Notes: generated by a model from the sequence alone, not told the origin. A DNA stretch of 64,000 nt from Nitrososphaerota archaeon (GCA_028867755.1 JAGWFT010000002.1:96001-160000), one strand, 5' to 3'; positions 5,085 to 17,278 are shown, counted from the first letter of the stretch. A program made the numbers and translations.

Positions 5085-5106
5085 TCATGTTTCAGTTAGG
5101 TTAAGG

Positions 5107-5120
5107 TTTAAAAAGTCTTT
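5107..5120 (+). repeat. attL direct repeat TTTAAAAAGTCTTT (overlaps trpS TATA box)
   Basis: Identical to 17249-17262; begins 23 nt upstream of the trpS ATG. Confidence 0.75.
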
Positions 5121-5169
5121 ACGGGATGGAACATTAGGGTTTAAAATTACTGTATTCCATAACTATGAT

Positions 5170-6270
5170 ATGGATAGAAGTTTAACAAGATTTTTTGCAG
5201 GTATCAGAACAGAAACGACAAGAGAAATTTATGATAGGTATCTTAGGTATTTTCTAAACTTTGTAAAAATAAAAGAGGCTAACGGATTGTTGCAACTCAA
5301 AGACTCTTACCTTCAAACTATGGTAGAAGATTACATCATACATCTGAAAGGTAGGGGCTTACGCAAATCCTCGATTGACGGGCAAATTTCAGCATTAGAG
5401 TTATTCTTTGCTATGAATGACAAGATATTGAATTTCAAGAAAATTCGCAAGATGTCGCCTATTCAACTAAAGATACAGGGAAACGGCTCTTACACAACAG
5501 ATGACATTAAGCGTATGTTAGAGGCTACCACATCGTTAAGAAACAAGGCTATAATTCACTGCCTTGCGAGTTTGGGTTGTCGCCCTAATGCGTTCTGCGA
5601 TCCGCCGTTAAGATTGAGGCATCTAAAAGAGGTCAAGGATGGATATTATTCAGTTCTAATGTACGAAGGCAGTGTCGAGGAATACAGAGGATACCTTACA
5701 AAAGAGGCTTCGATTTTGGTGAAAATGTATATGAACGAGAGGTCAAGGCAAGGCGAAGTAATTACACCTGATAGTCCACTCTTTCGAAATCTGTATCGTG
5801 TGGTCTTGTCTAAAGCCAAGCCTATGACCATAAAAGGAATCAAGTCCATGATTTTAGAAATTCTCAAAAAGATGCGGGGCAAAGGCAAGAAGAGAGGAGA
5901 GAGGTATGATACTGCGATGATTGGAGGGTTTAGACATCGCTACATCGAGATATGTGCAAAAAACAGGCTAGATGTTAGGTTAGCGGAGAGATTGGTATCA
6001 CATACACCAAAGAGCGCACCGATGGACAAGCATTATGTAAATATCAATAACATACAGGATGAACTCTTTAACGAGTTTTTAAGAATTGAAAGAGATCTTA
6101 CTATCTCAAAAGAAGAGAAGGAACGACTTGGAAGAATTGAAGCGGAGAAGAAAGTTACAGAACTTGAAAATGATAAAGATAAACGTATCTCGGAATTAGA
6201 AGCACAGGCAACAGAGACAAGAGATATGATTAAGGGCATTTATGCTCTCTTGGGAAGAGACACGACTTAG
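5170..6270 (+). CDS. int: Tyrosine recombinase / integrase
   Basis: LRNKAIIHCLASLGCRP (Arg), GGFRHRY, LVSH and KHY catalytic motifs, plus a C-terminal coiled coil. Start moved to ATG 5170, which has TTTAAAA at 5140-5146 as a TATA box. Confidence 0.9.
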   Translation: MDRSLTRFFAGIRTETTREIYDRYLRYFLNFVKIKEANGLLQLKDSYLQTMVEDYIIHLKGRGLRKSSIDGQISALELFFAMNDKILNFKKIRKMSPIQLKIQGNGSYTTDDIKRMLEATTSLRNKAIIHCLASLGCRPNAFCDPPLRLRHLKEVKDGYYSVLMYEGSVEEYRGYLTKEASILVKMYMNERSRQGEVITPDSPLFRNLYRVVLSKAKPMTIKGIKSMILEILKKMRGKGKKRGERYDTAMIGGFRHRYIEICAKNRLDVRLAERLVSHTPKSAPMDKHYVNINNIQDELFNEFLRIERDLTISKEEKERLGRIEAEKKVTELENDKDKRISELEAQATETRDMIKGIYALLGRDTT

Positions 6271-7025
6271 TTGTTTTTTTTAAATTTATTATAAAGAAAT
6301 TTTGTTTGTTGATTTACATTCTTTACTGTTTTTTTGTCATAAGGTGAACCTATCAATGCATTTAGTTTTTTGTAAAGTTGTTTATCAAACCCATATTTTT
6401 CTGCAAACTTGAAATTAAGCCTTATCATGCCTTCGGCAAATCTCACTTCAGAACTATCCGTGACTTTTTTTGAAAAACCATCTATCATGTTTTTTTGATT
6501 TAATTTAGATAATTCATTTAGAAGATTAAAGATATATGGTGCTGAGATTTCTGCTTTCTGAGACGGTGTAAACTTTGGATTGTCGTAAACCTCGAATCTG
6601 AGTAATTTTTTGGCATCGTTTGCAATACTTGGGGTTTTAACAAAACCATCGTCATCAAGGCTAATTTTGAAATAATAACGTGGATGTTTTGACTCTGGAT
6701 TAATTTTCTTAAGTTTGTTGTGTTTGCGAGCATGTAGCAAAACATCACGCAAGCTTGAATCGGAAAGCCCCGTACCCTTTTTAATTTCTGAATGAGTTGA
6801 TTCCCCATGTATGGCTAGGTAATCTGAAACAAGACACCAGTTTAGAACTTCATCTTTTTGCATCAAAGGTCTAATGAATTCGCTCCATTTGTGAGATTTG
6901 ATGGCTTCTGCAATTTCTCCCAAAATTAATTCACTAACGATATGCAATAAAGATGTTTTAACTCTTATGAAAAATTCGTAACATAATGTCATGTTGTAAC
7001 AGCATGTGCATGTGATGTACAACAT
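6267..7025 (-). CDS. Winged-helix DNA-binding protein (element regulator); true start may lie further downstream
   Basis: DYLAIHGESTHSEIKKGTGLSDSSLRDVLLHARKHNKLKK...RYYF fits a wHTH; divergent from the cargo operon. Confidence 0.65.
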   Translation of the reverse strand: MLYITCTCCYNMTLCYEFFIRVKTSLLHIVSELILGEIAEAIKSHKWSEFIRPLMQKDEVLNWCLVSDYLAIHGESTHSEIKKGTGLSDSSLRDVLLHARKHNKLKKINPESKHPRYYFKISLDDDGFVKTPSIANDAKKLLRFEVYDNPKFTPSQKAEISAPYIFNLLNELSKLNQKNMIDGFSKKVTDSSEVRFAEGMIRLNFKFAEKYGFDKQLYKKLNALIGSPYDKKTVKNVNQQTKFLYNKFKKNN

Positions 7026-7073
7026 AGGTCTGAAATGTTATGGTGTTATTAATTTGAAAAATATCGATTAAAC

Positions 7074-7391
7074 ATGGCAACAACTAGTATTGTATTCTGT
7101 CCTTGTGGATGTGGACTTGAGATAGACAAAGTTCCACTAATTGAGATTCTATCACATGCTAGAAAAGCCTGTCAGAAAATATTAGGAGAATGGAAAATGC
7201 AAAATGAAACAAAAACAAGTTGGCAATACGGTGTAGCCTTCAACAAAATACAATCCTTCTTTCAAAGAAAGGCTACTTGTCCGTTAGCTGACTGCAAACA
7301 GTATGTTGAGGCACACACAATGATAGAGTGCGTTCAGCACTTGAAGAGTTACCTCAACTCAATTGAATTGGAAGGTGGGCAACCAAAATGA
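7074..7391 (+). CDS. Cys/His-rich putative zinc-binding protein
   Basis: CPCGC and CPLADC..H..C..H; first gene of the operon. Confidence 0.6.
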   Translation: MATTSIVFCPCGCGLEIDKVPLIEILSHARKACQKILGEWKMQNETKTSWQYGVAFNKIQSFFQRKATCPLADCKQYVEAHTMIECVQHLKSYLNSIELEGGQPK

Positions 7392-7900
7392 AAACTATTA
7401 GTGTTGTTGCTCTAATCTCAATTCTACCATTTATTTTTTTTACAAATAACGCAAACGCCTACGTTGAAAACATCCAACTACAAGACCAATCTGGAAATAT
7501 GGTTGCTGTTGGATTGGATAATCCAAGTATAACTGCAATTGAACAGGGTTGGGTTTATGGTTCTGTGCAGACAAGCAATACCCAAGTTGTTCAGAATACA
7601 GGTATGTCGGACTTTGTTTCGCAGATAAAGCCGACACCACTTGGTTCAGAAGTTGACTTTGCTGGAAAGTTGGACAGCACAGCCACTATCAGACTTGTAG
7701 ACAATTCTGGGCAAAGTTGGAGTCTGATCTTGGAACCACAAGTGGGGAAGAAGACTAGCCAAGATGCAAGCAGTGGTAGTATGCCAAGTGTTACAGATGT
7801 CCCATACTACGTCTATGGGATAGTGGGACTGATTGGTGTTGGAACAATCCTACTAATCAGAAGGAGGAAGAGGGAAATTGGTGAAATCAGCAGAGTCTAA
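7388..7900 (+). CDS. Secreted protein with C-terminal membrane anchor
   Basis: Sec signal (ANA/Y), beta-rich domain, Ser-rich linker, TM helix, RRRKR tail. Confidence 0.75.
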   Translation: MKTISVVALISILPFIFFTNNANAYVENIQLQDQSGNMVAVGLDNPSITAIEQGWVYGSVQTSNTQVVQNTGMSDFVSQIKPTPLGSEVDFAGKLDSTATIRLVDNSGQSWSLILEPQVGKKTSQDASSGSMPSVTDVPYYVYGIVGLIGVGTILLIRRRKREIGEISRV

Positions 7901-16517: not shown

Positions 16518-16518
16518 T

Positions 16519-16665
16519 TTAACTATGTAATTCTTTGAGAAGTTCTTCTAAAGTGCTTCGTTTTATCTTGCCTTTGGCTTTATCGGACTCGTATTCTTTG
16601 ATATCTGCTATCTCTTCTGGTGTGAGATCGTCTTCTACTTTGGTCTTCTTTGTGGCTCGTTGCAT
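16519..16665 (-). CDS. 48-aa RelB-like antitoxin (not in ORF track)
   Basis: MQRATKKTKVEDDLTPEEIADIKEYESDKAKGKIKRSTLEELLKELHS; stop is 1 nt from the toxin start. Confidence 0.75.
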   Translation of the reverse strand: MQRATKKTKVEDDLTPEEIADIKEYESDKAKGKIKRSTLEELLKELHS

Positions 16666-16674
16666 GTTACCTTC

Positions 16675-16740
16675 ACTATGTTATAGCATAGTAGAATAAT
16701 TAAAACTATGTGTAACTATTGTAACTATGTTTGACTATTG
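16675..16740. promoter_or_regulatory. ACTATG palindrome plus four phased ACTAT repeats
   Basis: ACTATG-ttatag-CATAGT at 16675-16692; ACTAT at 16705, 16715, 16724 and 16734. Confidence 0.6.
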
Positions 16741-17160
16741 AAGACGCTCAGTCTCAATTCACCCCGTCCCACGGACACCCCTCTTGAGACTTCGCTTTTT
16801 GTCTAATTGACGAAATCCTCGCTCACCTCTAACACCAGGATCGTAAAACTCTCTTGGTGTTTTTTTGCTTACGCAAAACCGAGGCTCACCGAGGTAGAGG
16901 TAAAATTTCGCAGTTCGTTAGCCAATTCACCCCGTCTGCTTTGCAGACACCCCTCTTGGCTATCTCTCTACTTCATCCTAACTTTGTTCGGACGGCACGA
17001 TTTCCTTCGTGCCGTTTTCCCTCTACCTCGCTTCGGACGGCTGCCGTTGGCAGCCTCTCGCCCTTCGGGCTCGCCTCGCTCGGATTTCGTAGGGGTCTCC
17101 GCTTCGCTCCGCACTCCTTCGACTTCGTTGATAGTCGTTTGGCAGGGGTTTGTCTAAGAA
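16741..17160. other. GC-rich multi-hairpin region (candidate oriT, single-strand origin or structured ncRNA)
   Basis: Many perfect inverted repeats, a duplicated covarying motif and an 11-bp long-range pairing. Confidence 0.7.
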
Positions 17161-17248
17161 TATGTTAGAATGGTTGATTTGTGATAAGACAGAAAATTAA
17201 AGGTTGAAGCGTTGGATAGTATGATATTTTAAACCACAAAAAGCATGC

Positions 17249-17262
17249 TTTAAAAAGTCTTT
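17249..17262 (+). repeat. attR direct repeat TTTAAAAAGTCTTT (overlaps pheS TATA box)
   Basis: Identical to 5107-5120; the TTTAAAAA part ends 23 nt before pheS ATG 17279. Confidence 0.75.
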
Positions 17263-17278
17263 TTGGTTGTTTCTCATA

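Follow-up and report, generated by a model that had tools for sequence, protein, structure and literature searches.

Results

An insertion between trpS and pheS with an empty counterpart in relatives

We analysed 64,000 nucleotides (nt) of DNA from a Nitrososphaerota archaeon (GCA_028867755.1 JAGWFT010000002.1:96001-160000), hereafter the window, whose host is an acid-soil ammonia-oxidising archaeon (Nitrosotalea). Positions 5121-17262 very probably represent a 12.1-kb Nitrosotalea integrative element that entered by Campbell-type insertion into a TATA core shared by the divergent genes trpS and pheS, at a site where small cassettes appear to use the same core and the same flanking arm.

The insertion is bounded by an exact 14-nt repeat on the + strand. 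The preliminary description of this DNA had pointed to its two copies, and there are exactly two in the window. As the bases bordering the copies are unlike on either side, the repeat is exactly 14 nt long. The attachment sites on the left (attL) and the right (attR) and the genes adjoining them are laid out as follows.

3969-5084, - strand: trpS, tryptophan-tRNA ligase (Pfam tRNA-synt_1b), the host gene left of the insertion
5085-5106: host (B) arm of attL, the 22 nt from the trpS ATG to the core, matching the empty sites of 12 congeners
5107-5120, + strand: attL core copy, an A/T octamer (putative TATA box) and the 6-nt upstream hexamer of the trpS side
5121-5169, + strand: element (P') arm; a similar P' arm adjoins the same core in genomes G185 and G454
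5170-6270, + strand: tyrosine integrase of a divergent subclade, 366 amino acids, starting 49 nt inside the left repeat
17226-17248, + strand: conserved 23-nt right (P) arm adjoining the core
17249-17262, + strand: attR core copy
17263-17278: host (B') arm, the 16 nt that precede the pheS ATG, matching the empty sites
17279-18712, + strand: pheS, the host gene right of the insertion
18682-20337, + strand: pheT, the host gene after pheS

Both flanking genes are present in one copy each in the assembly and are firmly assigned, trpS by the NCBIfam TrpRS equivalog (513.9 bits, cut-off 478) and pheS with 477 bits against a cut-off of 350. Around the core of the reconstructed attachment site of the element (attP) stands the inverted pair that had been described, 17226-17235 and 5138-5147. 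No tRNA gene lies near either element end, and a tRNA target is ruled out.

Deleting 5121-17262 leaves 52 nt between the ATGs of trpS and pheS. We searched for pheS in 39 related genomes and then sought trpS upstream of it. In 12 congeneric genomes the two genes stand back to back, exactly 52 nt apart, with a single 14-mer and a near-identical spacer. This is precisely the divergent arrangement that the preliminary description had expected excision to leave and had proposed to look for in relatives free of the element; it had also held that genes not adjacent in relatives would speak against an insertion, and in these 12 congeners they are adjacent. Two of the genomes (G010 and G011) are flagged as unpublished; the other ten suffice for the result. 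The closest genome with an empty site, G005, shares 95% protein identity in trpS and 91% in pheS, so the insertion is recent on that scale. The same 14-mer is found in a 69-nt spacer in G025, which belongs to another genus.

It could be argued that two AT-rich promoters match by chance and that the intervening DNA is native. A 14-mer match at no more than one mismatch is expected 0.26 times, and at least two such matches arose in 3 of 100 shuffles of this AT-rich sequence. Nevertheless, the 12 congeners lack the 12.1 kb and hold one copy in their 52-nt spacer, which rules the chance match out, and we give it practically no weight. Throughout the genome of 1.64 Mb the 14-mer occurs four times. 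The other two copies are not due to chance either; next to them stands the 23-nt arm that the element has at its right end.

The repeated core coincides with a putative shared TATA box

To place the core relative to promoters, A/T-only octamers were counted upstream of 1195 long open reading frames (ORFs) of the source genome. Their starts form a sharp peak between -32 and -29, the mode being -30 (97-99 counts, background ~28), and TTWAWA hexamers show the same positional peak. Leaderless archaeal mRNAs usually begin at or close to the ATG, with the TATA box centred some 26 nt ahead of the transcription start, and the octamer peak fits such a box. The core octamer starts 30 nt before the pheS ATG and its reverse complement starts 30 nt before the trpS ATG, so that one box occupies the modal position for both genes alike, in agreement with the bidirectional TATA box that had been suggested for the core. 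Such a layout exists elsewhere in the genome yet is uncommon, as only 5-6 of 262 divergent pairs combine a 48-54-nt spacer with a central A/T box.

The insertion affects the two genes differently. As the 14-mer includes the six bases upstream of the box on the trpS side, these were duplicated as well; the trpS promoter at attL is unaltered. For pheS, the box and the downstream sequence are kept, and the sequence upstream of the box is now the right arm of the element, 17226-17248. The earlier proposal that pheS lost the sequence on the side of its transcription factor B recognition element (BRE) stands, with element DNA now in its place, and is to be completed by the trpS-side hexamer, which is kept within the repeat. 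Altered pheS expression may follow. The native upstream half of the pheS promoter, whose BRE-side sequence corresponds to the last bases of 5085-5106, remains at attL facing the element; the distance from that box to the integrase ATG is 63 nt. At 5140-5147, exactly 30 nt before its ATG at 5170, the integrase has an A/T octamer of its own, which is the right member of the inverted pair. Judged by geometry, the trpS-type half copy at attR would point leftward into the right end of the element. Integration would thus leave both genes intact because the duplicated core is itself the functional unit, a shared TATA box, and this reading predicts a rewired upstream control of pheS and an integrase placed behind a housekeeping promoter half.

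Integrase-less cassettes are stacked at the same site

Among the 17 congeners whose site could be read, four have other DNA inserted between trpS and pheS.

G017: 1430 bp, CitMHS-type permease; genome flagged as unpublished, similar cassettes in L076, L086 and L093
G012: 913 bp, two small membrane ORFs
G016: 1.4 kb, secreted Hint-domain protein
G003: two tandem units, a Hint-domain protein followed by a cupredoxin

Overall, such cassettes occur one or two per site in many Nitrosotalea genomes and soil metagenome contigs, measure 0.6-2.4 kb and carry no integrase. Every one is flanked by the 14-mer, and the only sequence common to them, shared also with the element, is the ~23 nt left of the right-hand core; this 23-nt arm is found at the right end of every insertion at the trpS/pheS site. 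In a set of 35 unique junctions, conservation of the arm is 80-100% between -23 and -1 and drops to the background level past -26. The 13 unique left junctions all have an exact core followed by A, as opposed to T in the empty site.

Scanning one genome per species for arm plus core gave 25 matches, 23 of them in Thaumarchaeota. Ten of the 25 lie directly before pheS, with trpS 0.6-2.1 kb off where the sequence reaches it; other matches are junctions between two cassettes. A metagenome scan added 18 matches, 13 before pheS, including the two-cassette array L173, and no integrase. The order of units varies: the cupredoxin unit stands alone in L082, after the Hint unit in G003 and after the membrane-ORF unit in L087.

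Conservation at one end alone would be expected of a circular unit with a single recombination site after Campbell insertion. A two-ended transposon does not fit this pattern, and neither do random deletion remnants, in which the left junctions would not stay exact. Like cis-mobilisable elements (CIMEs), the cassettes consist of integrase-less DNA between att sequences of an element that has an integrase and occupies the same site. The reading that suits them best is that of cis-mobilisable derivatives or satellites, stacked because the site was used repeatedly.

Alternatively, a transposase or casposase could have created the 14-nt repeat as a target-site duplication. The duplications of casposons measure 14-15 bp, which the repeat length fits. 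Thaumarchaeal casposons, moreover, integrate in tandem at fixed sites (PMC6563490). Yet Pfam, NCBIfam and PHROG scans of the ORFs revealed neither Cas1 nor a transposase domain, no terminal inverted repeats were found at the element ends, only the right end is conserved among the insertions, and it is a tyrosine integrase that adjoins the repeat. We regard a target-site duplication as highly improbable.

Two further observations concern arm or core sequences outside the window. A 587-bp contig of the source's own assembly with the 14-mer (C66, L004) was considered as an attP/attB junction, attB being the chromosomal site, and was rejected, as it is 97% identical to the Hint-cupredoxin junction of G003. 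The source assembly consists of 4 large contigs and 108 contigs below 2 kb, for which reason a second Nitrosotalea strain was probably co-assembled and is the probable source of C66. At a third locus (L169:7200-10500, Ga0209061_1000011) two arm-plus-core copies lie 1428 nt apart, each followed by the same ~50-nt sequence and separating genes for small secreted or membrane proteins, with a ParE-like gene nearby; L071 and L074 have the same downstream sequence.

The integrase and its occurrence beside the core

The preliminary description took the insertion for an integrase element, and an integrase gene does adjoin the left repeat. The N-terminal half of its product resembles the NCBIfam models XerA (5e-10), XerD and XerC (to 2e-5), all far under their cut-offs; PF02899 reaches 20 bits against a cut-off of 22.3, and the PDB match, XerA of P. 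abyssi (4a8e), is weak (E 0.021). R138, R255, H278 and Y289 are invariant in both homologue alignments (A1 and A2).

The association of the integrase with the core recurs. P0002, a protein of 87% identity from another metagenome, has an N-terminal extension that is a read-through of the trpS start, the spacer, the core and the P' arm; as this extension translates attL, P0002 lies at the same attL in a second sample. Among 399 genomes of the taxonomic family, the core together with an integrase-type P' arm is found only in the source genome, G185 and G454. The latter two belong to another genus, and their integrases, ~34% identical to that of the window, lie beside the same core next to trpS.

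The layout is that of non-suicidal (pNOB8-type) elements: the integrase is intact, the core at 5107-5120 lies outside its ORF, and direct repeats flank the element, with a one-copy empty site in relatives. The suicidal layout of SSV type, a split gene, is not seen, the integrase being unsplit and no integrase fragment being present at the right end.

A proposed mechanism and the alternatives to it

Based on these data we propose conservative site-specific (Campbell-type) recombination between a circular form of the element and the chromosome. The site of the element would be made up of 23-nt arm, 14-nt core and P' arm; its chromosomal partner would be a 14-bp core comprising the single A/T octamer of the divergent leaderless genes trpS and pheS and 6 nt upstream on the trpS side. 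Duplication of the core would leave each essential gene a TATA box at -30. The recombinase would most likely be the element's own tyrosine integrase, 5170-6270, and the element may still be mobile.

Several points weigh against this proposal. The promoter function of the core octamer is deduced from geometry and conservation, and the genome-wide BRE signal is too weak to score the native upstream sequence of pheS against the arm. No dyad-symmetric binding sites of core type could be delimited about the 14-mer. In the Pfam scan the integrase falls short of PF00589, and the His of its HxxR motif is Gly, as it is in the relatives at 76-89% identity. The assembly contains no contig with an attP/attB junction; as for a free form, a viral-contig scan gave 0 matches and the metagenome scan gave integrated cassettes only, with no junction of arm, core and P' arm. 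Finally, G012, a complete genome, contains a cassette at this site and no integrase of the window's family at E 1e-5, and for this reason another recombinase, or homologous recombination, may move the cassettes.

With respect to the active site, none of the members of the Gly-type subclade reaches PF00589, whereas homologues at 40-53% identity carry PF00589 and a His in HxxR (Asn in one), so that the homology to tyrosine recombinases is transitive. As the closest database relatives (P0002, P0003 and P0005, 76-89% identity) keep the unusual active-site stretch unchanged, we read the Gly-for-His exchange as a lineage variant under selection rather than as decay.

A recombinase acting in trans, either a host XerA-type enzyme or the integrase of another element, might move all insertions that bear arm and core, in the way that integrative mobile elements exploiting Xer (IMEX) at dif are moved by a host XerA-type enzyme. 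Most occupants of the site have no integrase, G012 has a cassette and no family member at E 1e-5, the arm is conserved across unrelated cargo, and the active site of the window's enzyme is atypical. However, three integrase lineages lie directly beside the core (that of the window with P0002, that of G185 and that of G454), the subclade is conserved at 76-89%, and arm plus core appears to lack the 11-6-11 dyad of dif sites. Movement in trans is therefore unlikely in our judgement.

Somewhat less likely still is rare site-specific insertion in the past, with the present diversity, the arrival of the 12-kb element in this genome included, arising by homologous recombination in the conserved trpS/pheS flanks or between the 14-37-nt repeats; the site would then be a variable islet rather than a place of active docking. 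Such an islet would account for cassettes lying between two highly conserved genes and for the lack of excision products in the assembly and the metagenome scan, and the repeats could support deletion and shuffling. It does not account for the same arm and core at two further loci, upstream of sucC and in the third array, nor for a left junction that is always exact, core and then A, nor for unrelated cargo that bears the same arm, nor for integrase-bearing occupants in two genera. We accordingly favour Campbell-type insertion by the element's own integrase.

Putative promoter cores beside related integrases

Matches to the integrase family were found in 150 of the 300 other genomes searched within the taxonomic order. 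Some members lie beside tRNA genes; for many, the start codon of a divergent host gene is 100-130 nt away. In two genomes (G345:C1:564740, L207/L208, and G332:C20:65150, L211/L212) integrase paralogues stand beside an rpl44e-like gene. A guessed 14-mer for this site had no second copy; a repeat search on 40-kb stretches revealed a shifted repeat, of 13 and 15 nt, that starts in a TATA-like box and has the same context at the second copy in both genomes. The copies are ~12.3 and 18.0 kb apart, and G350 shows the same left junction. In G326 a 16-nt repeat straddles the box of another gene, as compared to a maximum of 13 nt in the controls. The integrase at G191:C1:819732, 37% identical to that of the window, is that of NitD3C-E2, the published att of which overlaps the box that precedes a purN-like gene (Krupovic et al. 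2019, PMC6563490, Table S2).

At sucC, foreign DNA adjoins the TATA box in the source genome, G328 and G320, and that of G328 is homologous to the right-end region of the window. The sequence upstream of the sucC TATA box in these three genomes is unlike that of most congeners, suggesting a second promoter-adjacent insertion site. The source genome has a solitary copy of arm plus core 86 nt upstream of sucC (C24:899424-899462; L039:10425-10462, - strand), behind three small unassigned ORFs between ileS and sucC; a search allowing up to 3 mismatches revealed no second core within 2.3 kb.

A paralogous integrase of the source genome (C24:993319-994341, 36% identity) lies beside a purE-like gene, where a 15-nt repeat lies over a TATA-like box; counted from the integrase start, it recurs 1.76 kb downstream. 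The match does not clearly exceed chance and is only suggestive; the locus may be a minimal element, an integrase and little more. Repeat searches for the source-genome paralogues, G342 and G170 gave results that were ambiguous or not above controls. The closest genus-level relatives of the integrase (54-57% identity; G327, G010 and G351, of which G327 and G010, at 54%, are flagged as unpublished) lie at the 3' end of a seryl-tRNA-synthetase-like gene, so the choice of site shifts within the clade.

Taken together, these loci allow a wider reading, which we put forward tentatively. An integrase clade of ammonia-oxidising archaea might use TATA boxes and their upstream sequence as cores (at trpS/pheS, rpl44e, purN and possibly sucC and purE), with trpS/pheS serving as an integron-like docking platform at which cassettes with a 37-nt site would be inserted, stacked and reshuffled, and with the arm doubling as the upstream half of the pheS promoter.

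Other genes and features of the element

The remaining features of the 12.1 kb are listed below.

6267-7025, - strand: ORF of 252 amino acids, function unassigned by families (no match in Pfam, NCBIfam and PHROG scans)
7074-12415, + strand: co-oriented block of unassigned ORFs and an AAA_10 ATPase, with positive GC skew throughout
9003-10787, + strand: AAA_10 (HerA-VirB4-like) ATPase, 594 amino acids, AAA_10 33.3 bits against a cut-off of 27.5
13094-16069, + strand: GmrSD/DUF262-type protein, 991 amino acids, GmrSD_N 5.4e-30
16254-16517, - strand: ParE-like toxin, 87 amino acids, ParE-like_toxin 1e-5, 25.8 bits against a cut-off of 28
16519-16665, - strand: ORF upstream of the ParE-like toxin, 48 amino acids
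16740-17165: GC-rich structured non-coding module of 426 nt at the right end, with many short hairpins

The ATPase resembles CedB (7e-11) and TraC (1e-4), both far under their cut-offs. It is the only AAA_10 ATPase found; a second ATPase, as in the VirB4 and VirD4 pair of integrative and conjugative elements (ICEs), was not found. The GmrSD/DUF262-type protein is probably a defence gene against modified DNA, and 16254-16665 is a probable toxin-antitoxin stabilisation module. The module at 16740-17165 folds with z-scores of -6.6 (+ strand) and -6.4 (- strand) relative to shuffled sequences and has no Rfam match; pieces of it recur patchily, in several copies, in 24 of 58 other Nitrosotalea genomes, including upstream of sucC in G328.

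Discussion

Archaeal integrases are described as targeting tRNA genes, 3' gene ends or undefined intergenic DNA. Our analysis supports the view that the element is of a known kind, a thaumarchaeal tyrosine-integrase element, and that what is new is an att core that appears to be a shared TATA box and a site that also collects cassettes. An intergenic target would thereby be resolved to a functional unit, one TATA box serving two essential genes, which offers a rule for how compact genomes with leaderless transcripts may tolerate short AT-rich att sites. The analysis also points to a natural recombination site of ~37 nt and to a cassette-stacking hotspot in ammonia-oxidising archaea, which to our knowledge are still without genetic tools.

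For thaumarchaeal elements Krupovic et al. 2019 (PMC6563490) report a median att length of 17 bp and class 15 of 68 targets as 'intergenic'; promoters are unmentioned there, and the 14-mer and the trpS/pheS target are absent from Table S2. A review of archaeal tyrosine recombinases covers intergenic targets in few lines (PMC8371274). As in the listed 'intergenic' elements, such as NitD3C-E2 of Nitrosopumilus piranensis, a non-suicidal tyrosine integrase lies at one end, the repeats are short, a length within 5-60 kb is filled mostly with unassigned genes, and relatives have empty sites. Unlike in those elements, the core here maps to a putative TATA box that two essential genes share at -30, and cassettes lacking an integrase have used the site as well.

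In mechanism the closest parallel is bacterial tandem accretion with CIMEs, and integron arrays are comparable in architecture only. Such accretion and CIMEs are known at the att sites of ICESt-type elements of Streptococcus; there are also mobilisable islands that borrow the integrase of an ICE. The cassettes described here are likewise integrase-less units with the att sequences of a relative, arranged head to tail at one chromosomal site. They differ in that the units are single genes or pairs whose order varies among genomes, the host is an archaeon and the core would be a promoter element.

Integron arrays, with IntI, attI and attC, have also been reported in archaeal metagenome-assembled genomes. 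The cassettes resemble those of integrons in being small and mostly single-gene units, in having one recombination site at the 3' end, a variable order and a fixed docking site. However, there are only 1-2 of them per array, no recombinase gene, and hence no IntI, was found next to the cassette arrays between trpS and pheS, and the docking site is a housekeeping promoter instead of attI. The 37-nt arm plus core contains a 12-nt palindrome, and the core and inverse-core consensus of attC is not apparent in it by eye.

Integrases of pTN3 type direct insertion into the 5' half of tRNA genes, and the restored gene is then expressed from element DNA (PMC8371274). Similarly, an essential host gene, here pheS, would depend on upstream sequence supplied by the element. 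In the present case, however, the integrase is intact, and the target would be the RNA-polymerase promoter core of protein-coding genes.

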